32,000 bases of DNA. Source: Candidatus Methanoperedens sp. GTDB taxonomy: Archaea > Halobacteriota > Methanosarcinia > Methanosarcinales > Methanoperedenaceae. The notes beneath the pieces were generated by a model that had not been told where the DNA came from, ran no database searches, and saw only the letters and a program-made list of their open reading frames with translations. The position numbers and the translations under genes are program-made. The stretch spans positions 60,001-92,000 of the forward strand of contig JAPZAR010000010.1 of NCBI GenBank assembly GCA_027460535.1, read 5' to 3'. Of this stretch, positions 1 to 23,888 are shown in pieces (the stretch's first letter is position 1; each line of letters begins with the position of its first letter).

Positions 1-147
1 ATATGTCACGGTTCATGGGCAAAAGACAAGGTTTATGCAGGCAACTCTGCCTCTTCTCCATCGAACAATTCTCAAAAGAACCTCGAAAAATTCACCATAT
101 TCGATCTTATAAAAAACTTATTTAATGCTATATTTGGAATGATATAA
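1..147 (+). CDS. C-terminal fragment of an upstream ORF (possible c-type cytochrome tail)
   Basis: Frame +1 is open from the window edge to TAA at 145-147. Translation begins ICHGSWAKDK, so the edge may cut through a CxxCH heme motif. Hydrophobic tail FTIFDLIKNLFNAIFGMI. Only 48 codons are visible. Confidence 0.35.
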   Translation: MCHGSWAKDKVYAGNSASSPSNNSQKNLEKFTIFDLIKNLFNAIFGMI

Positions 148-165
148 ATGCACCAGGAAAAAAAC

Positions 166-173
166 TTTAAATA
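166..173 (+). promoter_or_regulatory. candidate archaeal TATA box upstream of the cytochrome operon
   Basis: TTTAAATA at 166-173 matches the archaeal TATA consensus TTTAWATA. It is preceded by purine-rich AGGAAAAAAA (BRE-like). An AGGAG-like element lies about 10 nt before ATG 223. Confidence 0.35.
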
Positions 174-222
174 CAAAATTTTACTGCTGATACTTTCAGT
201 ATATGGATAGGAGCGAATGTAA

Positions 223-684
223 ATGGATAAGAAAAAAATCTTAAAATACACAGTGGTAGTGCTGTTGATACTTTCGGTATCAGGGTATTACCTATACCAG
301 CATGCTTTAGATATCGGCCTGGAAAAACCAGCACTTGTACTGACGGTCTCTACGAATCTGACAGATAAGGGTACCCCAATAATCAACAATGTCACATTCG
401 AGGAATCCAGTGTGATGTTCTTCTATAAGAGAGCGGATACGCCTGCGAATTTCCCGGAAATAGACGCTAACGCCCGAATCAATAAGCTTGCCGCAATTCC
501 TGCGAGCTTTTGGGCTTCAATTCATCGCCCAAGCGAAGGCGTGTATACCCTGAGGATGTTCTTCAGGGACGGTATGGAACCTAAAAAAGGCGATGTCCTG
601 ATCATACCGATCCGCCTTGTAAGCCATACGGGAGCCATCCAGTACAAAACAACAGCTTTCTATTGCTGGAGTTGTGAGGAATGA
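223..684 (+). CDS. small N-terminally anchored protein of unknown family, C-terminal CxxC
   Basis: 153-aa ORF with a Lys-rich N-terminus followed by a hydrophobic helix (YTVVVLLILSVSGYYLY). It ends FYCWSCEE. The stop lies 2 nt before the next ATG, consistent with operon packing. Confidence 0.6.
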   Translation: MDKKKILKYTVVVLLILSVSGYYLYQHALDIGLEKPALVLTVSTNLTDKGTPIINNVTFEESSVMFFYKRADTPANFPEIDANARINKLAAIPASFWASIHRPSEGVYTLRMFFRDGMEPKKGDVLIIPIRLVSHTGAIQYKTTAFYCWSCEE

Positions 685-685
685 G

Positions 686-1645
686 ATGAAACTGATGTGG
701 GTATTGCTTGCGCTGGGCGGGATTTCATTATGGGTTATTCCCAATACCCTTTCCCTCTTCAGCGGAGGGCATGCCTACTATAACATTGATGCCAATGGTT
801 CACAGGTCCCATGCCAGAAATGCCATGGGGATATCCAGATAGAGATCCATACGGGCTCCATACATTCCAATTTTACATGTGCCGACTGCCACCGCGTCCA
901 GAATGGCGTACAGTACGCAAGCGGCGACGATGCATACGAGCGGCTCATATATATCAACGTGACCGGGCCGACGAACATAGGGAACAGGGTTCTTGCAACA
1001 ACGCTGGGGAATTTCCAGAGAGGTAATTTCCCAAAATCAATAATCGGTGAAACTATGATCGACCAGTGGGCAGTCTCCGGAAATGACGAGGTGCAGTTCC
1101 GGGATGCAAATAATCAATATGCTGGCGCCATGACACCCGGCGAAACAGGCATATTATACAACTACGCATATGCAGAAGAGATAAGCACGTATTTTAATGG
1201 AACACCAAAAGACACAGACCTTTTCACCCAACAAAATATGCTTGACCCAAGATTGATTACTGTGAACCCGAACCGTTTGGGTTCGGACGATCTCATAGGC
1301 GCGGGGTCCAGAGTGGTTACACCCGGGACATTGGCCCATGCAGCATCGACTATCCTGTGCGAAGAGTGTCACTCAGATTATCTGGCCAAAATGCCTGACA
1401 ATATACATGAAGCTTTCATCAAGTATGGTATGGAACACGATACAAACGAAAACTGCATCGCATGCCACACTTCAACAGCCGTATCAATTAACTGGACCCG
1501 TCCGAGCACACTGGGCATTGAAACAGGCTCTGATGGCTACAATATCACAATCAAGAAGACCTACTCGGCTTTCAATGAAAAACTTGAAACTTTTGGAAAT
1601 AAGGAAGGTAATGTTTTCGCAGTATCGAATGTGACAATAATATAA
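686..1645 (+). CDS. tetraheme c-type cytochrome, exported
   Basis: Four CxxCH motifs: CQKCH (812-826), CADCH, CEECH, CIACH. There is an N-terminal hydrophobic segment and about 7 N-x-S/T sequons. Two N-terminal and two C-terminal hemes are separated by a ~155-aa heme-free insert. The ORF track starts at GTG 674. ATG 686 (MKLMWVLL) is preferred because it lies 2 nt after the upstream stop with GAGGA just upstream. Confidence 0.85.
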   Translation: MKLMWVLLALGGISLWVIPNTLSLFSGGHAYYNIDANGSQVPCQKCHGDIQIEIHTGSIHSNFTCADCHRVQNGVQYASGDDAYERLIYINVTGPTNIGNRVLATTLGNFQRGNFPKSIIGETMIDQWAVSGNDEVQFRDANNQYAGAMTPGETGILYNYAYAEEISTYFNGTPKDTDLFTQQNMLDPRLITVNPNRLGSDDLIGAGSRVVTPGTLAHAASTILCEECHSDYLAKMPDNIHEAFIKYGMEHDTNENCIACHTSTAVSINWTRPSTLGIETGSDGYNITIKKTYSAFNEKLETFGNKEGNVFAVSNVTII

Positions 1646-1706
1646 ATATTCAAGTGCTAATTATTTAAAAAATGTATAATAATAGAAATAAATTGTGTTC
1701 GATTGT

Positions 1707-3173
1707 ATGAAAAGAATTATCGTATTAATATTCACGCTAATGCTATTGTCGCAGACCGCATCAGCTCTGGGCGAGTTCAGGTTTGATTTTGCAACTTCGG
1801 TCGCTGGGGTTAGTAACTACACAAAGCACTGGTCAAATACCTATCCTCCCGATCCAAAAGCGGACATTATAATTTATTCAGCGGCCTATAATATGTCCTA
1901 CAAACGCATATCAGCTGTCACGTTCCTCTATACCGTCTATGATCCGTATGACAATGTCGTGAGCGTGCAAACGATAGACTCTTTCAAGCGCGGTTATGAC
2001 CCGAATGTGGTTTATTATAATCTGCATCCCGGATCCGACTGGATAGAGGGGATATATAAACTCAACATCGTTGTGTACGACAGGATCGACCGTGAGGCAT
2101 ACGATGAGAAGATCACCAAAGATCCTTTTGGTATTGGCATGAATCCTGATGCGTATAAAACATTCTATGAGACGGGTGCTAATGCGCAAGATATGGGCAT
2201 TCTTCTGGGTCGAGGGAATCCGGTAGCTCAGGCGGTACTTAATTTCAAAATAGACAAATCGGTCACTATCTATCCACCGGACAGGTTCCTCCTTCATGAT
2301 GTGAGGTTCGTCGATGACAACAATGAGCGTATACTCGGTGAGAAACTCAACATAGAGGTAAAGCTCGATAATAATTACAAAGATGAGGGTACTGTCAAAC
2401 TGGCAATGCTGGTGGATAATAATCTTGTTTCCACGCAGGAAGTCACGGCTAAAGGACAAACAACCACAACGGTCAACTTCGATGCCAAAGCAGGTAAGGT
2501 CGGCACCTTCAAATTACACTTCGGGGCAGATACTCCTGATGTAAAATATCAGAACGCGGAGTTAACCTTCACAATCAAGAACGAGACAGATACAACCAGG
2601 TTGGATACCCCCAGGATCACCATTACAGGAATGAACGTTAACAAAGAGTTCGTACCTATTGGTGAAAACGTAATTGTATCTGTAGGCGCGATAAATAACG
2701 GTCAAGCCGGAAGCAAAACGATTACCGTTTATTCGAATAAAGTACCCGTTGGATCGGCGCAATTGCAGCTCCAGAGTCTTGAAGAAAAAACAGTAGAGAT
2801 CCCCATAGATTTGAAAAACATGGGGATAAATAAGATCACCGTATCGGATGCGCCTCAACTTTTCAGGAACGTATTCGTGCAGGAGGCAGACGCATCGGCG
2901 ATTAAGGGGAATCAAGTCCTAAACCGGGTTACTGAAAGCCCCTTGAAAGTTTCGATGGTAGTTGTGTTCCTTGTTTTTGCAGGGACCCTTTACTATATGA
3001 GGAATAAGTTAAAGGAAGAAGAATCCCCGCCGAAAATCCCCGTCGAAGCGGTTAAGGAAAATCATCCAAGCAAAGTGGTTTTAGATGACACGATAATGAA
3101 AAGAGCGTCCTATTTGAGAGAGAAGCTGTCTGACAGGATGAGGGCAGTAATGAAAAATAAACCGCGCCCCTGA
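1707..3173 (+). CDS. exported type-I membrane protein with CARDB/Ig-like beta-sandwich repeats
   Basis: Signal peptide MKRIIVLIFTLMLLSQTASALGEF. Two segments resemble CARDB domains (GEKLNIEVKLDNNYKDEGTVKLAMLVDNN...; GENVIVSVGAINNGQAGSKTITVYSNKVPVG...). A C-terminal TM helix (VSMVVVFLVFAGTLYYM) is followed by a charged ~60-aa tail. The ORF track starts at GTG 1695, but ATG 1707 fits the signal peptide better. Confidence 0.7.
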   Translation: MKRIIVLIFTLMLLSQTASALGEFRFDFATSVAGVSNYTKHWSNTYPPDPKADIIIYSAAYNMSYKRISAVTFLYTVYDPYDNVVSVQTIDSFKRGYDPNVVYYNLHPGSDWIEGIYKLNIVVYDRIDREAYDEKITKDPFGIGMNPDAYKTFYETGANAQDMGILLGRGNPVAQAVLNFKIDKSVTIYPPDRFLLHDVRFVDDNNERILGEKLNIEVKLDNNYKDEGTVKLAMLVDNNLVSTQEVTAKGQTTTTVNFDAKAGKVGTFKLHFGADTPDVKYQNAELTFTIKNETDTTRLDTPRITITGMNVNKEFVPIGENVIVSVGAINNGQAGSKTITVYSNKVPVGSAQLQLQSLEEKTVEIPIDLKNMGINKITVSDAPQLFRNVFVQEADASAIKGNQVLNRVTESPLKVSMVVVFLVFAGTLYYMRNKLKEEESPPKIPVEAVKENHPSKVVLDDTIMKRASYLREKLSDRMRAVMKNKPRP

Positions 3174-3179
3174 CCCGAT

Positions 3180-3866
3180 ATGAAAGAAATAGACTATACA
3201 ATACCCCTGATCGTTTCATTGATTAGCTTAGTATTGCTTTCGGTCTTTTACCTCTACAAAACAGAAAACGGTACATTGATGCGCATATTTTCATCCTGGG
3301 TCATGAAGACAAGATACAGTCCTGCCAAGTACCAGAAAGATACACGCGGGCAGGATTCTATTCTGCTGGTTGTATTGACCATATTGATCTTTGCATTTGC
3401 TCTGAAAATTATCTCTTTTGCTGTGGTCATATCGGATTCCATGCGACCAGAGTTCCAAAGAGGCGATATCGTCCTTACTCAAACCATATTCAAAGATCCC
3501 CAGAAAGGAGATATTGTCACCTTCAAGGCAAGCGGCGTCCAGAATCCCATCACCCACAGGGTTGTTAATGTTCAGCAGGATATCGTGACAACGAAAGGTG
3601 ATAATAATCCTCTTGTCGATGATTATGGGACTACCAGGCAAGACGTTCTTGCAAAAGCCGTCGTAGTGGGCAGTCATCCTCTCGTGATAAAGGGTGTAGG
3701 TTCTTTATTCATTCTGGACTTTTCCAAAGAAGGTAAACTCAATAAATTCGGCGACCAGTTCACCTTCCTCCAGCAGGTGTTTGTAACTATAAGAACATGG
3801 GGATACGTCATTACAATAATAGCCTTCAGTGCGTTGATAATGTCTATGATGGGGAGTAAGAGATGA
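3180..3866 (+). CDS. signal peptidase I, Sec11/SipW type (S26B, Ser-His)
   Basis: All S26B boxes are present: VVISDSMRPEFQRGDIVL (catalytic Ser box), ITHRVV (His box), TKGDNNPLVDD (GDNN box). TM helices flank the catalytic domain. The stop overlaps the next start (ATGA at 3863-3866). Confidence 0.85.
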   Translation: MKEIDYTIPLIVSLISLVLLSVFYLYKTENGTLMRIFSSWVMKTRYSPAKYQKDTRGQDSILLVVLTILIFAFALKIISFAVVISDSMRPEFQRGDIVLTQTIFKDPQKGDIVTFKASGVQNPITHRVVNVQQDIVTTKGDNNPLVDDYGTTRQDVLAKAVVVGSHPLVIKGVGSLFILDFSKEGKLNKFGDQFTFLQQVFVTIRTWGYVITIIAFSALIMSMMGSKR

Positions 3867-4747
3867 ACCGGAAATTATACTTGCTGGTGATACTGGCAAT
3901 TATTATAACCACATTGAGCCAGACATTTTCCTTTATTAGCGGAGACCATCAGTTCTACGAGACAGTACAGGATAAATGCGTGAAATGCCACGGCGATATC
4001 AAAGTCCAGTTATCCACATCAGCCAACCATTCGCAATTCTCCTGCACGAGCTGCCATACCCAGTCGGCAACTAACCATACAAATACGGTACCTAAGTGCG
4101 AATATTGCCATACGATCACGCAATTGAATGATACGCTTGAAGCACACCCTGATTTCTTGTCTCTGGGTTCACAAGGCTGCATAGCCTGCCACACAACCTA
4201 CAACGTTCTTGTGAACTATTCCCGGCCGGAGTATATTGACTATGACATTACAAGCGATAATGGAAATTGGATTGTCTCTAATTTTACGACAATTGGAACG
4301 CTGAACCTTTCTTATAACACATTGAGACAGGGCGGGACCCATAACGAGAAAAGTGTATCATGCAAAGACTGCCATAAAGACATCTTCGATTCGATTTCCG
4401 TGAAAGGTCATGCGGTAGTCCTTGATAAGAATGGGATGCAAGTGCCCAGTCATAGTACGAGCAACTCCCCGAACCTGGAAGAATGGTGCCTGACCTGCCA
4501 TAGCCCGAATGATACCAGGTTCCCAACACAGCAGCATGCTGCGCGCAAAACCACGTGTGACGAATGCCATGAAGCTTATAATTTAGCGCCCCATCCCGGC
4601 AATTTCTATGCAAATATCAAGACAGTTCCGCATTTATATCGGAGCCTCGTTTGCATATCATGTAAATCTGTGGGATGGCAGGTACCCAACGCAACTTTAC
4701 ATTTCAAGGTGCGTGAAGAGCCTTATTTCGACGTGGTGGTGACATAG
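3863..4747 (+). CDS. heptaheme c-type cytochrome, exported (plus one CxxCK)
   Basis: Seven CxxCH motifs: CVKCH, CTSCH, CEYCH, CIACH, CKDCH, CLTCH, CDECH. One additional CISCK lies at 4652-4666. There is an N-terminal hydrophobic segment and at least 8 N-x-S/T sequons. The N-terminal diheme module is homologous to that of the tetraheme protein. Confidence 0.85.
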   Translation: MNRKLYLLVILAIIITTLSQTFSFISGDHQFYETVQDKCVKCHGDIKVQLSTSANHSQFSCTSCHTQSATNHTNTVPKCEYCHTITQLNDTLEAHPDFLSLGSQGCIACHTTYNVLVNYSRPEYIDYDITSDNGNWIVSNFTTIGTLNLSYNTLRQGGTHNEKSVSCKDCHKDIFDSISVKGHAVVLDKNGMQVPSHSTSNSPNLEEWCLTCHSPNDTRFPTQQHAARKTTCDECHEAYNLAPHPGNFYANIKTVPHLYRSLVCISCKSVGWQVPNATLHFKVREEPYFDVVVT

Positions 4748-4748
4748 A

Positions 4749-5630
4749 ATGAAAGATAAAATTGCGGTTTTTAGCGCCATTCTGTTGGGCCTGGTCGTAG
4801 GATTATTCGCCACCATATCGCTCATAATCGATGCGTTCATTGTTGATAACTTATTAGGAACGATCATAGATCTCATAGTAATAGGTTTTTCTTACATGAC
4901 AGCCTGGATTGGTATCCGGTATGTCCTGATGGAGAAAATTGCGCGGGATAAAATGGACCGGGAATGGGATTATAAAATACAGCCACTGGCCAATCTGATG
5001 ACTGACACGATCGGACGTTTTAATGCGATGGAACTTGAAATCATGAAGACCAATCGCAAAGTGGAAACAGCTCTTGATTATGTGACAAAAATGCAGGATA
5101 TGGATGCCTCATCTGTTTATATTCTTCCGGGTGCATCCTTTAAATTCATAACCAAAGTCCTTGTGCTGATAATCTTTACGTTCTCGGCATTGATTTATGT
5201 GGCCCAATATCCTCTGGGATTTGTTCATTACTTCATTCTGGTCATCTACTTATTATGGTGGGCACTATTCACTTCAGAATATCATCTCTTTGATAACAAA
5301 ACAGCGTGGATATGGGCTCTGGCACCCATAATGATTATTCCGGTCGGGGGAATTATCCTTGATGCCACACTTGGAATAAACAACATGGTTGGCATACTCT
5401 TCTTCTTCATGTTCATCTACGCTTATTCCTATTACACGTGGACGACGTCAGTGACCATTGGATTCAAACTCTTCGACATCCAAAAGATCAAGGATTATTT
5501 GATCAAGAAGATCGAATCTGAGATACAGCAGGAGAAGGTGGAGCGGAAGATAAACAGGAAATGGATCGATGTAGGGATTCTTGCATCTATTGTGATCGCG
5601 GGAGCGGTTGCAGTATGGATCTTTCTGTAA
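4749..5630 (+). CDS. polytopic membrane protein (about 7 TM), unknown family
   Basis: 293-aa ORF starting 2 nt after the cytochrome stop. Hydrophobic helices are visible by eye (2 N-terminal, 4 central, 1 C-terminal). Two charged, probably helical soluble segments separate them. Confidence 0.65.
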   Translation: MKDKIAVFSAILLGLVVGLFATISLIIDAFIVDNLLGTIIDLIVIGFSYMTAWIGIRYVLMEKIARDKMDREWDYKIQPLANLMTDTIGRFNAMELEIMKTNRKVETALDYVTKMQDMDASSVYILPGASFKFITKVLVLIIFTFSALIYVAQYPLGFVHYFILVIYLLWWALFTSEYHLFDNKTAWIWALAPIMIIPVGGIILDATLGINNMVGILFFFMFIYAYSYYTWTTSVTIGFKLFDIQKIKDYLIKKIESEIQQEKVERKINRKWIDVGILASIVIAGAVAVWIFL

Positions 5631-6047: not shown

Positions 6048-6332
6048 TCCATTTCAATTTCTGCGCCTATGCTTGCTGATGGTTCTGGTGATATATATTT
6101 GCGACTGTACACGAAATCCACATATGACAGATAGTTTCATTGCTGAGTGAATAGAAGAACAAAAGGTAGATTAATATTCAGGTTAATATAATGGCTGGCT
6201 GCTCTGAGGTATATGGTGACAGGGCATGCGATAAGATTGAGGATGGAAAAATGTTAAATGCAAATCTATCGGTGCATGAGGAGCGATAGTATGAATCGAC
6301 CAAACGCTCTTCCGATCAGACAGGAACCAAAA

Positions 6333-9300
6333 ATGAAAAGCTTTCAACTGATCTGGAAAGTGTTTCTGTTCATCGGCGCTTTGCTTGTAATAATGCTTCC
6401 TTCAGGTATTGCTGGAAGCATCGCTGCAGCCCAAAATCAGGATGTGGTGTATGACGATAAGATTGCTGAGCAATGGGCTAATGGCACATGGGACTGCGCC
6501 AGCGGCGGTTCGCCTGAATATAATCTCTCGCAATCTGAGGTTGTCCACAGCGGCAACTACGCCATCGAGGTCAACCATTCCAGCCCTTACTGTCAAGGTG
6601 GATGGGGCGCCCTTGATTTAGATAGAAGAAATGAACAATGGACTGCTCTCTACTGGATGTATCCCAATCAGTATAAGAACCTCTCCTTCTACTTCAATCC
6701 CGGACACAGCCTCGATAATCTGGGTGCACTGAGCATCACTGCAGACAACGGCTATACTGTGAGGTTAATAGACTACATCAATGGAACAGCAAGTCCAGAT
6801 ACCTGGTATCACATCAATATCCCCCTTGAAGATTTCAATCGGGGAAACAAGTTTTTCAGGATTGTTTTCTGGTTTACCTCATCTGGCAATCTCCACTACT
6901 ATCTCGATGATATCTCCCTGGAATGGATAGATGACCCGAATCCGCCTCTGATTTCCAATGTATCGGTCACAAATATTACCTGGAAAAGCGCTGAGGTCAG
7001 ATGGCAGACTGATGAATATACCAATTCTACCCTTTACTCTGTCGCAGGGGATAACAATTTTTCTTATGAAGAGACGGACTATACCAGAGAGCATAAGATC
7101 ATACTAACAAATCTTACCCCAAGTACCACCTATCGTGTCCACATCATTTCCAGGGATCACCAGGCCAATGCTTCTGTCTCTGCGAACATTGCAGAGAATT
7201 ATAGTGAATTTACCACCGCCCCTCCGGATGTAATACCTCCAGTGATAAGCAATGTGTGGGTTTCAGATATTAAATCAGATCGTGCATCAATTTACTGGAC
7301 GACCGACGAACCTGCAGATTCAAGAGTTTATTATGGTGAAAATAATTATAGCGCCAATAAGACAGATGACAGCCTTACCACCAGCCATCGCGTTGTTATA
7401 ACTGGACTCAAACTGCTGAATTCGTATCAATATAAGGTAGCTTCCCAGGATGAATCAAGGAACCTCGCTGCTTATGAAGAAACTCCACCGATGAATTTCA
7501 CAACCACCGCTTATCCAGCAGCCACGCTGCAGGTAAATGCTGCCAATAAGACCCGTCCATTCAGCAGGAATATCCTGGGGGCTGGTCTTGGCAACTGGGC
7601 TTTTTGGTGGGGAAGACCATATCCAAATGATTCGCTAAAATTGCGGGAGCTGACCAAACTTATCAAACCGGGAGTTTTGAGATATGCAGGAGGTCTTGCG
7701 TCCAACAGTGTCACCTGGGACAGGAATAACACGCAACATTACGCGGCGGGATTTTACGATAAGAATGGCGTATTAACCTGGGGCCAACGCCAATACTATA
7801 ATCCTGGGGATCCTTTAACGGTCGGATATGACCGCTGCAATGGTACAACGCCCATCAGGGTAGAAAATGCCTACGATAAGGGTTACCAGAAAGATGAGAT
7901 CGATGCCTTGGCAGCCTTTGCAAAATACGTGGGGGCAGATGTAATGATTGAAGTAGATATTAGCACCTGTGACCCTGAACTCTGGGCTGATATGCTTAAC
8001 TACACAAATGTTGAGAATAATTATAATTTCAAATACTGGGAACTTGGGAATGAACTGGATCTTGAGAAAGCAGCTGGAAAACCCGTGCCTTTTGGTTCGG
8101 AATATGTTTCCAGGTTTAAGAAATACTCCAAGGCATTAAAGGCCGTGGATAATAGCATTCTCATCACTGGTCCGACCACGGCATCGTATTATAATGAATC
8201 TTACTTCCGGGCATACATAGATTTCATCGATCCCCTTACATTGGATCCGGAAATCCAGCAGAACAAATCCCTGGATGTTCTAAGTTATCACTATTACCCG
8301 CTATGGAACCATGACGGAGGTGTGAAAAGTTATGAGGATATGTTTGCCTTTGACTCTCGTAAGGAAATGGATTCCGACGCAAGGGACAAGAGGGAACTTT
8401 TGGATAATCGCAATCTTACAAATACCAGGATCGCTATCTCGGAGTTCAATTCCATGGCAGCCGATCTGGCAACCTCTTATACATTTAACCATGCCAATGC
8501 TCTCTATATGGCTGATACACTGGCAAGGCAGGCAAATAGCGGCGCAGATATGATCATGCACTGGGAACTTTATGATCAGCCCTACGACTCTACAGGAAAA
8601 TTAGATACAAGTTACGGGCTGCTCAATTACAATGGATCCTCTATCAGCATAGGTTACCCGCCGTCAAGAGAAATAACTATAGAAGACAAGTTCTTCCCCA
8701 TGCCTGTTTATTACACGTATTTCATGTATGCCCAGTTTTTTGGAGACATGCTGGTGCGATCCTCCAGTTCCATGGAGGATAACCTCTCGATCTGGGCAAG
8801 TACTGATTCCGCCCAGCCAAATACCTTAAAACTGATGGTCGTCAATCTGGCTGACGAATCTGTTAATGCCACCTTAAACTTAAGTGGTTTTCACCAGACA
8901 GGCGGCAGATACTTCGAGATGACTAACGATGACTTTGTGACTGCTCCAGATAAAGCAAAGGTTTTTGGTGGAACGAAAATCAACGGTCTGGAAATTAACA
9001 GCAGTTCTGCACAGAGCATTATCGACTCGGCACAAAGGATCATTGATTCTGGTAGACCTGTGAGCGACATGGGAAATTCTTTCAACCATGTTTTCCCGGC
9101 CTATTCTGCCACTGTCATCGTGCTTAACACTACTGCTTCACAAATCCAGGGTGTCACAAATCTCAGCAATGTAAGCTATGCCAGCAATTATATCAACTGG
9201 ACATGGACTGACCCTGCAGACCCGGATTTCGATAAAGTAATGGTATATCTTAATGGAAATTTCCAGAGGAATGTAACCAAAGGTACGCAGTATTACAATG

Positions 9301-9689
9301 CCACTGTGGCACCAGGAACATACACCATCGGCACAAGAACAGTGGATACTAATGGAAATATTAATGCTACCATGGTGACGCATACTGCAACCACGGTACT
9401 CCCATCGATAAGGTTCATTAACGGCACTGTGATGGACAGTGTCAATAAAACGGGAATCGCTGGTGTGAGTGTATCAACCAATACCAGCCTCTCAACAACG
9501 ACTAATTCGACAGGGTTCTATTCGTTTGCAGTTGCTGAAGGCACATACAGCCTTACGGCAACTTTTGATATATCATATTATACGAATAGCACAATTGTCT
9601 CAACGATTGGAAGCGCTGTTGTGGTGAAGGATATTGAACTGGTAAAGAAGCCCACCGGAACTATCACTGGTAGTGTTACAAGTACTTAG
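6333..9689 (+). CDS. large secreted multidomain protein: N-terminal CBM-like region, 2 FN3-like, clan GH-A-like TIM-barrel glycosidase domain, FN3-like, CarboxypepD_reg-like
   Basis: Sec signal MKSFQLIWKVFLFIGALLVIMLPSGIAGSIAAAQ begins at ATG 6333; the ORF track start at 6258 adds 25 unlikely residues. FN3-like repeats: ISNVSVTNITWKSAEVRWQTDE and ISNVWVSDIKSDRASIYWTTDE. Glycosidase signatures: LRYAGG, KYWELGNELD (acid/base NE) and IAISEFNS (candidate nucleophile). The C-terminal segment GTVMDSVNKTGIAGVSVSTN...GFYSFAVAEGTYSL is CarboxypepD_reg-like. N-x-S/T sequons are very dense. Confidence 0.75.
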   Translation: MKSFQLIWKVFLFIGALLVIMLPSGIAGSIAAAQNQDVVYDDKIAEQWANGTWDCASGGSPEYNLSQSEVVHSGNYAIEVNHSSPYCQGGWGALDLDRRNEQWTALYWMYPNQYKNLSFYFNPGHSLDNLGALSITADNGYTVRLIDYINGTASPDTWYHINIPLEDFNRGNKFFRIVFWFTSSGNLHYYLDDISLEWIDDPNPPLISNVSVTNITWKSAEVRWQTDEYTNSTLYSVAGDNNFSYEETDYTREHKIILTNLTPSTTYRVHIISRDHQANASVSANIAENYSEFTTAPPDVIPPVISNVWVSDIKSDRASIYWTTDEPADSRVYYGENNYSANKTDDSLTTSHRVVITGLKLLNSYQYKVASQDESRNLAAYEETPPMNFTTTAYPAATLQVNAANKTRPFSRNILGAGLGNWAFWWGRPYPNDSLKLRELTKLIKPGVLRYAGGLASNSVTWDRNNTQHYAAGFYDKNGVLTWGQRQYYNPGDPLTVGYDRCNGTTPIRVENAYDKGYQKDEIDALAAFAKYVGADVMIEVDISTCDPELWADMLNYTNVENNYNFKYWELGNELDLEKAAGKPVPFGSEYVSRFKKYSKALKAVDNSILITGPTTASYYNESYFRAYIDFIDPLTLDPEIQQNKSLDVLSYHYYPLWNHDGGVKSYEDMFAFDSRKEMDSDARDKRELLDNRNLTNTRIAISEFNSMAADLATSYTFNHANALYMADTLARQANSGADMIMHWELYDQPYDSTGKLDTSYGLLNYNGSSISIGYPPSREITIEDKFFPMPVYYTYFMYAQFFGDMLVRSSSSMEDNLSIWASTDSAQPNTLKLMVVNLADESVNATLNLSGFHQTGGRYFEMTNDDFVTAPDKAKVFGGTKINGLEINSSSAQSIIDSAQRIIDSGRPVSDMGNSFNHVFPAYSATVIVLNTTASQIQGVTNLSNVSYASNYINWTWTDPADPDFDKVMVYLNGNFQRNVTKGTQYYNATVAPGTYTIGTRTVDTNGNINATMVTHTATTVLPSIRFINGTVMDSVNKTGIAGVSVSTNTSLSTTTNSTGFYSFAVAEGTYSLTATFDISYYTNSTIVSTIGSAVVVKDIELVKKPTGTITGSVTST

Positions 9690-22306: not shown

Positions 22307-23188
22307 ATGAAAAAGATTTGCACAAAATTACATTTGGGCGATTGCAAAGAAGTTTTAAAAACGCTTGATAGTAATTCAATTGACCTGGTTTTCACTTCAC
22401 CGCCTTATGCTGACCGCAGAATACATACATATGGTGGTGTTAAGCCAGAGAATTATGTTGAATGGTTTTTGCCTATCAGCGAACAACTTTTAAGAGTTCT
22501 TAAACCTGATGGAACTTTCATTTTAAATATTAAAGAAAAAGCCGAAAATGGCGAGAGACATACTTACGTCTTGGAATTGATTTTAACATTGCGAAAACAG
22601 GGCTGGCTATGGACGGAAGAACTTATCTGGCACAAAAGAAATTGTTATCCCGGTAAATGGCCTAATCGTTTTCGTGATTCCTGGGAAAGACTTTTACAAT
22701 TTAATAAAACTAAAAAATTCAAAATGTATCAAGAAGAAGTTATGGTCCCTATTGGCGATTGGGCAAAAGACAGATTAAAACGTTTAAGTGAAGTAGATAA
22801 AATTAGAGATAATGCAAAAAATGGTAGTGGCTTTGGTAAAAATGTTTCGAATTGGCTAAATAGAGATAAAGCTTATCCAACAAATGTCTTACATTTAGCT
22901 ACTGAATGCAATAATAAAAATCATAGTGCAGTTTTTCCAGAAGCTTTACCAGAATGGTTTATTAAATTATTCACTAAAGAAGATGATACCGTTTTAGACC
23001 CTTTCATGGGTTCAGGAACAACTATTGTTGTAGCACAGAGGATGAGACGGAATTCCATAGGCATAGATATTTTGCCTGAATATTTCGAGATAGTTAAAAA
23101 TAAAATAAGTCCAGTTCAATATTACTTAGTTGAAGAAAAAGGAATTTATGAAACAAATAAATATGAACGATGTTCAGAAATATGTTGA
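22307..23188 (+). CDS. beta-class DNA methyltransferase (N4-cytosine or N6-adenine; SPPY suggests N4C)
   Basis: Motif IV DLVFTSPPYA lies near the N-terminus and motif I VLDPFMGSGTT near the C-terminus. This IV-before-I order is the beta-class permutation. Confidence 0.85.
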   Translation: MKKICTKLHLGDCKEVLKTLDSNSIDLVFTSPPYADRRIHTYGGVKPENYVEWFLPISEQLLRVLKPDGTFILNIKEKAENGERHTYVLELILTLRKQGWLWTEELIWHKRNCYPGKWPNRFRDSWERLLQFNKTKKFKMYQEEVMVPIGDWAKDRLKRLSEVDKIRDNAKNGSGFGKNVSNWLNRDKAYPTNVLHLATECNNKNHSAVFPEALPEWFIKLFTKEDDTVLDPFMGSGTTIVVAQRMRRNSIGIDILPEYFEIVKNKISPVQYYLVEEKGIYETNKYERCSEIC

Positions 23189-23888
23189 AGAGAACATCGG
23201 AACTTTCCATTCAAAAAGGTTACAAAATCTTGAAAAACTCAAATTAAAGCGTGTCTTACAAAGAAAAAATCCGTATCTTTTTAAAGCTAAAAATATTTTA
23301 ACTGCTCAAGATTTAGTACAAAATCTTCTTGATGCTTACTTATCTTCTCAGGAAGAGACAATTTTTGGAGATTTTCTTGAAGGTCTTGCAATTTTTATTT
23401 GCAGTAGGATTTATGATGGGAATAAGTCGGCAGCTGAGGGGATCGATTTAGAGTTCAGTAAAGATGGGATAAAATATCTCGTAACGATAAAATCAGGACC
23501 AAATTGGGGAAATAGTGGTCAAATCAAAGATATGAAGAAATCTTTCATTAAAGCGATAAAAATTCTAAATACCAATAATCCTAAAATTCATGTTGTTGCT
23601 GTGAATGGTTGTTGTTACGGACGATCGAAACAAATAGAAAAAGATGGCTATCGAAAACTATGTGGTCAAAGATTTTGGGAATTTATTTCAGGAAATGAAA
23701 ACCTGTATACAGAAATAATAGAACCTCTTGGACATAAAGCAAAAGAAAAGAATGAAGATTTTTTAAAAGCCTATTCAAAATTAATTAATAAATTTACGTT
23801 TGAATTTGGAAGAGATTTTTGTTTAGATGGAGAAATAAATTGGGACGCTTTGGTAAAATTCAATTCATCAATTCAAAAGCCAAAATAA
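23148..23888 (+). CDS. candidate type II restriction endonuclease partner
   Basis: It overlaps the 3' end of the methyltransferase (start ATG 23148 or 23163) and has the same low GC. The family was not recognised from sequence. The call rests on context. Confidence 0.5.
   Translation: MKQINMNDVQKYVEENIGTFHSKRLQNLEKLKLKRVLQRKNPYLFKAKNILTAQDLVQNLLDAYLSSQEETIFGDFLEGLAIFICSRIYDGNKSAAEGIDLEFSKDGIKYLVTIKSGPNWGNSGQIKDMKKSFIKAIKILNTNNPKIHVVAVNGCCYGRSKQIEKDGYRKLCGQRFWEFISGNENLYTEIIEPLGHKAKEKNEDFLKAYSKLINKFTFEFGRDFCLDGEINWDALVKFNSSIQKPK

Follow-up and report, generated by a model that had tools for sequence, protein, structure and literature searches.

Gene content of the locus

We analysed a window of 32,000 nucleotides (nt) from a contig of Candidatus (Ca.) Methanoperedens sp., and we are concerned here with the row of genes with which it opens, in which multiheme cytochromes are encoded around a type I signal peptidase. 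The row occupies positions 1-5630 of the window and comprises, on the + strand, six co-directional genes and the 3' tail of a seventh. A preliminary description, made from the letters of the window, had placed six co-directional reading frames here and had assigned the DNA to a Methanosarcinales-type archaeon. All six frames are indeed present on the + strand, and the source is Ca. Methanoperedens sp. (Methanosarcinales), the peptidase being 100% identical to an annotated protein of a Ca. Methanoperedens metagenome-assembled genome (MAG). In what follows, AvECN denotes the extracellular cytochrome nanowire of Archaeoglobus veneficus, reportedly described by Baquero et al. in Cell in 2023, and proteins whose N-terminus resembles that of AvECN are called ECN-type. 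The features of the row are as follows.

1-147, + strand: 3' end of MHC200, comprising the last heme motif, then a linker rich in Ser and Asn, then a conserved amphipathic helix at the C-terminus (from the translation)
223-684, + strand: p153, 153 amino acids (aa), one N-terminal transmembrane (TM) segment, without a known domain
686-1645 (or from a GTG at 674), + strand: MHC4, tetraheme cytochrome of AvECN type, CxxCH at residues 43, 65, 225 and 257
740-784, + strand: predicted cleavage region of MHC4, with the ECN-type signal-peptide c-region followed by the mature N-terminus, P19-N-T-L-S23 / L24-F-S-G-G-H29-A-Y-Y-N33
1646-1706, + strand: AT-rich spacer of 61 nt, the sole sizeable gap of the gene row (sequence read)
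1707-3173 (or from a GTG at 1695), + strand: p492, with an AxA signal peptide, a TM segment at residues 417-435 and a charged cytoplasmic tail
3180-3866, + strand: Sec11-type signal peptidase I, 228 aa, with TM1, basic loop, TM2, catalytic domain, extension and C-terminal TM segment
3863-4747, + strand: MHC7, seven CxxCH plus, at nt 4652-4666, a conserved CxxCK; start overlapping the stop of the peptidase gene
3917-3961, + strand: ECN-type N-terminus of MHC7, S-Q-T-F-S / F-I-S-G-D-H29-Q-F-Y-E
4749-5630, + strand: TM293, 293 aa, polytopic

The tight spacing that had been reported for the row is found at four junctions, each read directly: 1 nt between p153 and MHC4, 6 nt between p492 and the peptidase, an ATGA overlap at 3863-3866 between the peptidase and MHC7, and 1 nt between MHC7 and TM293. 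It does not extend to the junction of MHC4 and p492, where the AT-rich spacer of 61 nt intervenes (49 nt if p492 starts at the GTG), nor to the gap of 75 nt between the fragment at 1-147 and p153. The peptidase gene does lie amid its likely substrates and overlap one of them, as had been noted. The spacer at 1646-1706 contains ATTTAAAAAATGTATAATAA, directly before p492, and it may hold a candidate internal archaeal promoter for p492, the peptidase, MHC7 and TM293.

The contig extends upstream of the window, with 0 mismatches over the overlap, and the additional sequence shows what precedes the row. The fragment at 1-147, suspected earlier of being a cytochrome, is the C-terminus of MHC200, a protein of 200 aa with 6 CxxCH motifs and an ordinary AxA signal peptide (full gene at 6366-6968 of collected locus L001). 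The tail of this family, a Ser/Asn-rich linker followed by the amphipathic helix LEKFTIF.[LF]IK.LFNAIFG, is strongly conserved, and the paralogue MHC222 ends in an analogous tail; the helix may be a membrane-surface or docking anchor. We also considered sorting by PGF-CTERM and archaeosortase, and rejected it, there being no such C-terminus. Positions 1-5630 are the downstream two-thirds of a longer locus, which is one of two paralogous loci in the genome.

Cytochromes homologous to an archaeal nanowire subunit

In a profile search of the Protein Data Bank (PDB), MHC4 has exactly one significant match to a solved structure, 8e5g_A, with E = 4.2e-16. The same chain is matched by MHC433, a five-heme cytochrome encoded upstream in the same contig (E = 1.5e-22), and, over nearly its whole length, by MHC237, a four-heme cytochrome of 237 aa encoded directly upstream of a second peptidase gene that we describe below (E = 2.5e-29). 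The entry 8E5G is the extracellular cytochrome nanowire of A. veneficus, AvECN (PMC11176372; PMC12954529). To judge from these profile matches, MHC4, MHC433 and MHC237/243 are homologous to the solved A. veneficus nanowire subunit, and the earlier guess that the locus might be related to the tetraheme filaments of archaea is borne out for MHC4 and for its upstream paralogues.

The pattern of His residues can be compared as well. His 29, 47, 55, 60, 69, 218, 229, 241 and 261 of MHC4 are invariant in an alignment of 17 orthologues (alignment A2); when two distant paralogues are added (alignment A3), H55 falls to nearly invariant (at least 90%). There are, that is, nine conserved His for four hemes, and H29, H218 and H241 align with His of AvECN. 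The orthologues of MHC4 come in two lengths, 194 aa and ~319 aa, and the present copy is of the longer form. The longer proteins carry a heme-free insertion of ~125 aa between hemes 2 and 3 (residues ~85-210, nt ~938-1315), which is absent from the 194-aa orthologues and from AvECN.

The preliminary description had proposed a comparison with the filament cytochromes of bacteria as well as with those of archaea, and only the archaeal half of it yielded a relation. PDB searches with MHC4 and MHC7 gave no significant match to OmcS, OmcE, OmcZ or PcECN; the OmcE chain 7tfs_A appears for MHC7 at E = 4.5, and we reject kinship with OmcS, OmcE and OmcZ. Membership in the NapC/NirT/NrfH family is likewise rejected, since MHC4 and MHC7 score 20 and 33.9 bits against the NrfH model TIGR03153, far below its cut-off of 134.

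MHC7 had been described as a seven-heme cytochrome. It does have seven CxxCH motifs, and it has in addition an eighth motif, C264-x-x-C267-K268, that is conserved in the free-standing orthologues, including distant relatives of 363 aa. In a divergent clade of loci and in giant fusion proteins this CxxCK aligns with CxxCH. By this alignment MHC7 may bind an eighth heme whose ligand is Lys or whose site is open, comparable to the active-site hemes of NrfA-type proteins. The fusion proteins are giant surface proteins of M. nitroreducens and other species; the MHC7 module, with 8 CxxCH, forms their N-terminus, and the remainder is built of repeated Ig/CarboxypepD_reg-like domains. Three of them lie at 10753-20687 of L006, 11644-17574 of L019 and 8020-15792 of L026; their lengths, in ascending order, are 1976 aa, 2590 aa and, for a partial one, >3300 aa (annotated 3539 aa). 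In M. nitroreducens the giant cytochrome follows the peptidase, and some genomes that have the fusion also have a free-standing MHC7 beside it.

The density of N-x-S/T sequons that had been remarked upon in both cytochromes is real. MHC4 and MHC7 contain 2.2 and 2.7 sequons per 100 aa, compared with 0.54 in the remaining proteins of the window, a comparison set that is mostly cytoplasmic housekeeping. Such enrichment fits what would be expected of extracellular glycoproteins.

A conserved N-terminus before the first heme

MHC433, MHC4, MHC7/8 and AvECN have a common start: a short basic tip, a hydrophobic helix, and the motif P-[SN]-T-x-[SA]-L-F-x-G-[QG]-H-x-[FWY]-Y-[ND]. In order to quantify this motif, we aligned 74 unique N-termini from all collected loci on its His. 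Positions -5 and -4 relative to the His were part of the rule by which the sequences were selected, and the other positions were not. Within the selection rule, L occurs at -5 in 58 of the 74 and F at -4 in 69. Outside it, P is found at -10 in 56/74, T at -8 in 51/74, S or A at -6 in 68/74, G at -2 in 68/74, Q at -1 in 63/74 and Y at +3 in 61/74. The first heme Cys follows the motif His at a median distance of 14 residues. According to the -3/-1 rule, a signal peptidase would be predicted to cut after the S/A, leaving L-F-x-G-Q-H as the new N-terminus.

We then compared the conservation of the signal segments with that of the mature parts of the same proteins. The percent identities are as follows.

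MHC433, ECN-type: signal segment 76%, mature part 48%
MHC4, ECN-type: signal segment 74%, mature part 72%
MHC7, ECN-type: signal segment 53%, mature part 53%
MHC200, ordinary AxA: signal segment 31%, mature part 51%
p492, ordinary AxA: signal segment 38%, mature part 58%

The ECN-type signal segments are conserved as much as, or more than, the mature parts, whereas the AxA signals of the same operon are conserved markedly less. By this measure the ECN-type helix is constrained by more than generic Sec targeting. The presumed substrates also differ from their neighbours in the cleavage region itself, where they carry a distinctive motif as opposed to the ordinary AxA of MHC200 and p492; we infer that the private peptidase reads the motif P-x-T-x-[SA]/L-F.

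Another subunit supplies the distal His to three of the four hemes of AvECN (PMC12203936; bioRxiv 10.1101/2023.06.12.544705). It is therefore plausible that the His of the N-terminal arm bridges subunits in the Methanoperedens proteins too.

Type IV pilin-like (class III) signal peptides were considered and rejected, as the conserved small residues come after the hydrophobic segment and not before it. Variant N-termini were also encountered. In L084-L090 and L094 the peptidase is found with 4-heme proteins whose N-termini read, for example, ...L-P-[SA]-T-F-S-Y-S-G-S-M-H-T-F, or ...L-P-S-M-V-S-M-F-L-E-G-F without the His; cytochromes with 12 and 24 hemes are encoded in some of these loci as well.

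The signal peptidase and its subfamily

Sec11-type enzymes with a Ser/His/Asp arrangement are the type to which all archaeal signal peptidases belong. The peptidase of the window passes the test for this family, with 81.7 bits against TIGR02228 (sigpep_I_arch; cut-off 51.85), and it scores 33.4 bits against PF10502 (cut-off 22.9). Its best PDB sequence match is human SEC11A/C (E = 1e-11). A structural model of moderate confidence (pLDDT 64) has human SEC11C, 7p2q_A, as its top Foldseek match (E = 6e-5, probability 1.0). It had been called a Sec11/SipW-type enzyme, and the first half of that label is right, although it names simply the normal archaeal type; the second half is not, since the SipW equivalog model NF046067 gives 39.1 bits against a cut-off of 190.

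The catalytic Ser lies in an S-x-S-M-x-P box, a His (rather than a Lys) in T-H-R-V, and the Asp in G-D-N. Because S87, H126, D141 and D147 are invariant in 16 orthologues, with equivalents invariant in 30 distant members of the subfamily, the enzyme looks, from its sequence, catalytically competent and of the Ser/His/Asp type.

The architecture of the protein is special in two respects. An additional N-terminal TM segment and a basic loop precede the usual anchor, forming an N-terminal membrane hairpin, and the core is followed by a conserved stretch, P-[IV]-V-[IL]-K..G.YF[IL].D, and then by a C-terminal TM segment. We searched 1.84 billion representative proteins with a profile of the Methanoperedens peptidase orthologues. 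About 80 of the best 150 representatives match the profile over its full length, C-terminal extension included, whereas generic S26 proteins match the core alone (profile positions ~60-165). Every named member that we found is archaeal, namely Ca. Methanoperedens, Methanoperedenaceae, Methanosarcinales MAGs and Ca. Syntrophoarchaeum butanivorans. By its profile, then, the peptidase belongs to a distinct archaeal subfamily associated with cytochrome clusters.

Residues 149-220 of the peptidase (window 3624-3839) show a weak AmoC-like similarity (PF04896, E = 9e-4; TIGR03078, E = 1e-4; PDB AmoC, E = 0.2). These matches are far below the cut-offs and are probably membrane-helix noise, and we reject kinship of the C-terminus with AmoC.

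Conservation of the peptidase-cytochrome linkage

Whether the neighbourhood is conserved had been proposed as a check on the locus, and it is. A genome scan with narrow patterns, using one genome per species, returned archaeal loci that are all Methanoperedenaceae-type, along with unrelated bacterial S26 genes. There are 18 such Methanoperedenaceae-type loci, two of which carry no finer label than Methanobacteriota MAG or Euryarchaeota MAG. As far as each contig extends, the order is MHC433-(p75)-MHC200-p153-MHC4-p492-peptidase-MHC7-(giant fusion)-TM293; the divergent clade has a shorter core, MHC5-MHC6-p150-MHC8-peptidase-TM293.

We also scanned metagenomes with distant members of the subfamily, which are 30-50% identical to each other, and obtained 59 loci, 57 of which have usable flanks. 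A same-strand CxxCH gene directly adjoins the peptidase gene in 46 of these 57, often overlapping it. A strict regular expression for the N-terminal motif was matched by 35, and many more variants, including larger 6-11-heme genes downstream, could be recognized by eye. Homologues of TM293 lie downstream in 9 of the 19 metagenome loci that have at least 2.5 kb of downstream sequence.

The genome of the window contains a second cluster of AvECN type, divergently transcribed from the first. It fills the ~10 kb immediately upstream of the window (L095 1-7221, equivalent to window positions ~-9778 to -2558, minus strand) and runs off the end of the sequence. Its genes are, in order, a BamB/PQQ-like anchored beta-propeller protein, a CARDB/DUF11 protein, MHC222, p142, MHC243, MHC237, a peptidase and a large MHC7-like cytochrome; p142 is a homologue of p153, and the signal peptide of MHC222 is of the ordinary AxA kind. 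A full version of this cluster, with a TM293 homologue at the end, is found in metagenome loci L077 and L078. The second peptidase (L095 329-1054, 241 aa), 8.7-9.4 kb upstream of the window, is 33% identical to the first. A census of S26 genes had been suggested as a means of finding a separate housekeeping copy; the extended contig contains this second gene, ~9 kb upstream, which is however another cytochrome-cluster paralogue and not the copy that was sought. The genome has at least two S26 genes, each inside an AvECN-type operon, and the adjacency of peptidase and cytochrome is kept in both. The linkage between the two is strong and ancient, and has survived duplication.

Membrane partners

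Three further proteins of the row are membrane proteins. The first, p153, is present in all Methanoperedenaceae loci where the sequence covers its position, including the divergent clade, and its relatives in distant loci and in the paralogous cluster are ~22% identical. Profile searches gave no Pfam, NCBIfam or PDB match for it. It is a core member of the module.

The second, p492, is a secreted type I membrane protein with Ig/Fn3/CARDB-like beta-sandwich domains. Its profile matches an Fn3-like domain in 7ms2 (E = 6e-6), and there are weaker matches to 3idu, 2kl6 and 2l0d, whose E values of 0.017-0.26 exceed the usual cut-off. It is absent from the divergent clade (L021-L025).

TM293 had been described as a seven-TM protein. 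A hydropathy scan, which is crude, indicates five strong TM segments and about two weaker ones. Its invariant residues are P79, W170, W171, E177, L180, W187, I194, P198 and Y224, with W231 nearly invariant, and there is no conserved His. Profile searches against Pfam (including its heme-handling families), NCBIfam and the PDB returned no match. The gene directly follows the peptidase in L021-L025 and in part of the metagenome loci; elsewhere it is found one or two genes further downstream. TM293 is probably the '8x TMH' protein of Chadwick 2022, discussed below.

Surroundings of the row

The rest of the window is ordinary chromosome, with tRNAs, RadA, primase, GINS, eIF2-alpha and ribosomal proteins. 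A location on a Borg or other extrachromosomal element was considered and is rejected, given this core housekeeping content.

Two other features of the window may be mentioned. Positions 6258-9689 encode a secreted protein of 1143 aa, with weak, below-cut-off Pfam matches to GH39/GH44, fn3 and CarboxypepD_reg and with 40 N-x-S/T sequons (3.5 per 100 aa). It has one repeat type in common with the giant MHC7 fusion proteins, and its synteny with the cluster is not conserved. Genes for an N6/N4 DNA methylase and an EcoO109I-type restriction endonuclease lie in an island of low GC content at positions 22307-23888 (0.32-0.36 compared with ~0.45), a restriction-modification system that was probably gained by horizontal transfer.

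Relation to known systems

The preliminary description knew of no link between such a peptidase and cytochromes. Such a link has in fact been published: Chadwick 2022 reported a signal peptidase and an unannotated '8x TMH' protein with conserved tryptophans, both kept in the cytochrome clusters of anaerobic methanotrophic archaea (ANME), and proposed for the pair roles in signal-peptide removal and heme handling (PMC9012536). The pair also occurs in Syntrophoarchaeum, Geoglobus and Ferroglobus, and is missing from a cytochrome-free subclade of ANME-1 (PMC9012536). The same study lists a widespread family of small cytochromes common to ANME, Syntrophoarchaeum and Archaeoglobales, which are among the most transcribed genes of ANME (PMC9012536), and a BLZ2 'ECN' is named in PMC12246660. 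Both the pairing of peptidase with membrane protein, by Chadwick 2022, and the AvECN homologues of Methanoperedens are therefore already published. In the searchable library, which excludes Baquero 2023, we found no publication that links the peptidase with subunits of AvECN type, with a motif for cleavage or with assembly.

The present locus resembles the ANME pair in that an unannotated polytopic protein with conserved Trp lies beside the peptidase, with both among cytochrome genes, in the restriction of the pair to ANME, Syntrophoarchaeum and archaea capable of extracellular electron transfer, and in the proposed removal of signal peptides (PMC9012536). The two differ in their neighbours. 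The locus of Chadwick lies upstream of CcmF2 and the S-layer cytochrome MHC-B and was read as one of general maturation (PMC9012536), whereas the neighbours here, and in 46 of the 57 metagenome loci, are cytochrome genes, mostly with an AvECN-type N-terminus and its single conserved motif at the cleavage site. Within 10 kb in this genome we found no CcmF, no other Ccm gene and no S-layer cytochrome, and the combination of an eight-TM protein with CcmF2 and MHC-B does not occur, TM293 having ~7 helices by crude hydropathy.

The resemblance to AvECN consists of significant homology, four CxxCH in the same order, conserved non-motif His, and the N-terminal helix with the motif S-L-F-x-G-Q-H-x-W-Y-N. 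The differences are the insertion of ~125 aa that separates hemes 2 and 3 of MHC4, the five heme motifs of MHC433, and the fact that no filament has been seen in Methanoperedenaceae.

Among fibre systems outside the archaea, the architecture is closely analogous to that of Bacillus subtilis tapA-sipW-tasA, in which a Sec11-type peptidase gene lies between genes for extracellular fibre subunits. The Methanoperedens enzyme is not a SipW orthologue, however, its substrates are heme proteins and not of the TasA fold, and there are additional membrane partners; moreover, dedication is proven for SipW, while for the Methanoperedens peptidase we infer it. SipA/LepA of Streptococcus pyogenes (PDB 4N31), which is among the fold matches of the peptidase, is likewise an S26-fold protein of a filament locus and is needed for pilus polymerisation; it lacks the catalytic residues and acts as a chaperone, whereas the Methanoperedens peptidase retains Ser, His and Asp. 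In Geobacter, the nanowire subunit gene of OmcZ is accompanied by a private protease, OzpA, that licenses assembly, but OzpA is subtilisin-like and trims the mature protein, and the enzyme considered here is a signal peptidase. Finally, bacterial OmcE clusters encode beta-propeller lipoproteins, and the paralogous cluster has its BamB/PQQ-like anchored beta-propeller. OmcS, OmcE and OmcZ of Geobacter are otherwise unlike the present proteins: they have no sequence relation to them, and archaea lack an outer membrane, so that no beta-barrel is involved.

Interpretation and alternatives

We favour, tentatively, the interpretation that the locus is a module for the biogenesis of extracellular cytochromes of AvECN type, whose N-terminal arm would be freed by the private peptidase, and we hold it slightly likelier to fail than to stand. 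The precursors would be exported by Sec, would have hemes attached outside the membrane, and would remain tethered by the conserved N-terminal helix. The peptidase would then cleave behind a small residue (-1) that has Thr two places before it (-3), exposing L-F-x-G-Q-H; the invariant His would ligate a heme, possibly in the neighbouring subunit, and so cleavage would both free the subunit and permit polymerisation or docking. TM293, p153 and p492 could form a membrane platform or anchor, and MHC200 and MHC7 could be membrane-proximal electron feeders, or a base or tip unit.

Several points weigh against this interpretation, and we collect them here. Cleavage, specificity and filaments are the parts of it that go beyond what is observed; the cleavage site is predicted by the -3/-1 rule, and the conservation of the helix fits a retained membrane anchor equally well. 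A 2026 review credits Methanoperedenaceae with AvECN homologues and states that no filaments have been observed in them (PMC13046784). Apart from the N-terminal module, MHC7 lacks a significant homologue in the PDB. An AlphaFold2 model of MHC4 computed without hemes from a 24-sequence alignment is unusable (pLDDT 44), and the Foldseek results on it are noise. Five loci of the peptidase subfamily (L036, L037, L041, L044 and L046) have no cytochrome gene in their flanks of ~0.3-2.7 kb per side, and their neighbours look like housekeeping genes; identity to Ca. Syntrophoarchaeum is 98% and 70% for L036 and L037, and 43-50% for the other three. Because of these five loci, clustering with substrates is not universal, and the peptidase is not obligatorily clustered with them. 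Lastly, we found no further S26 gene, and with it no generic housekeeping copy, in the archaeal loci, in ~0.85 Mb of collected locus sequence as distinct from the whole genome.

The main rival is the published reading of general cytochrome maturation, in which the majority, or the whole set, of the cell's multiheme cytochromes would have their signal peptides removed by this enzyme and TM293 would help to handle heme, with no particular tie to filament-forming subunits or to polymerisation. We think it unlikely, though well worth weighing. The pair stands next to CcmF2 and MHC-B in ANME-2a/2b/3, where the same role was proposed (PMC9012536), several Trp are invariant in TM293, loosely reminiscent of heme-handling proteins, and some of the cytochromes next to the peptidase, with 9-12 hemes, do not resemble AvECN along their whole length. 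On the other hand, the genes flanking the peptidase, large ones included, are overwhelmingly ECN-type at the N-terminus, TM293 has neither a conserved His nor a Pfam heme-handling match, and there is no Ccm gene within 10 kb. Moreover, the proteins of the same operons that lack the ECN-type N-terminus, MHC200, MHC222 and p492, carry ordinary AxA signals, a pattern that argues for some specificity, without proof. A different possibility is that the helices are retained, so that MHC4 and MHC7 would be anchored carriers similar to NapC, NrfH or CymA, passing electrons outward from the quinone or methanophenazine pool of the membrane, while the peptidase serves the operon's other secreted proteins. 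This would agree with a hydrophobic segment conserved as much as the mature protein, with the first heme lying at a fixed short distance from the motif His (median 14 residues), and with a weak NrfH-like similarity (2j7a_C at E = 0.2 over the helix and first hemes; 20-34 bits against TIGR03153). We consider it improbable: the NrfH score is far below the 134-bit cut-off, the site obeys the -3/-1 rule and has, five residues before the cut (-5), a Pro that would break the helix, an outward location is indicated by the enrichment in sequons and by the giant surface proteins that begin with the MHC7 module, and AvECN, which has the same N-terminus, forms an extracellular filament whose structure was determined on sheared appendages (PMC12203936; PMC12954529). 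It is still less probable, and in our judgement very much so, that this is the ordinary signal peptidase of the cell, or one of them, encoded here by chance or kept here for co-expression with abundant secreted proteins. The universality of the Sec11 type in archaea, the want of a generic S26 gene in the collected sequence and the five loci without a cytochrome in their short flanks, two of them close to Ca. Syntrophoarchaeum, all speak in its favour. It must however contend with two paralogues in one genome, each inside a cytochrome operon, with adjacency in 46/57 loci across sequences only 30-50% identical, and with the additional domains that are peculiar to the subfamily; and neither methanogens nor the cytochrome-free ANME-1 subclade have the peptidase, although signal peptides must be processed there too (PMC9012536).

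A bolder form of the biogenesis interpretation may be stated, which we doubt without dismissing: that the peptidase subfamily, TM293 and p153 together would be the missing machinery by which archaea build nanowires, an ancient and duplicated module in which the helix and P-x-T-x-S/L-F-x-G-Q-H are specifically recognized by the peptidase and the cut licenses polymerisation, since the arm that it frees would give its His to a heme in the next subunit. If this were true, a module common to ANME, alkane-oxidising and iron-reducing archaea would be a genomic marker for nanowire-based electron transfer.

Implications

Whether methane-oxidising Methanoperedens use wires is a key open question (PMC13046784). 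The locus turns the question of archaeal nanowire biogenesis into specific tests, since it amounts to a parts list: a cleavage motif, a private peptidase with intact catalytic residues, and two conserved membrane partners. The peptidase could also be a handle for the heterologous production of archaeal nanowires. Many uncultured archaea have the same module next to genes of AvECN type, and it could therefore serve as a marker of wire-based extracellular electron transfer in methane and alkane oxidisers.

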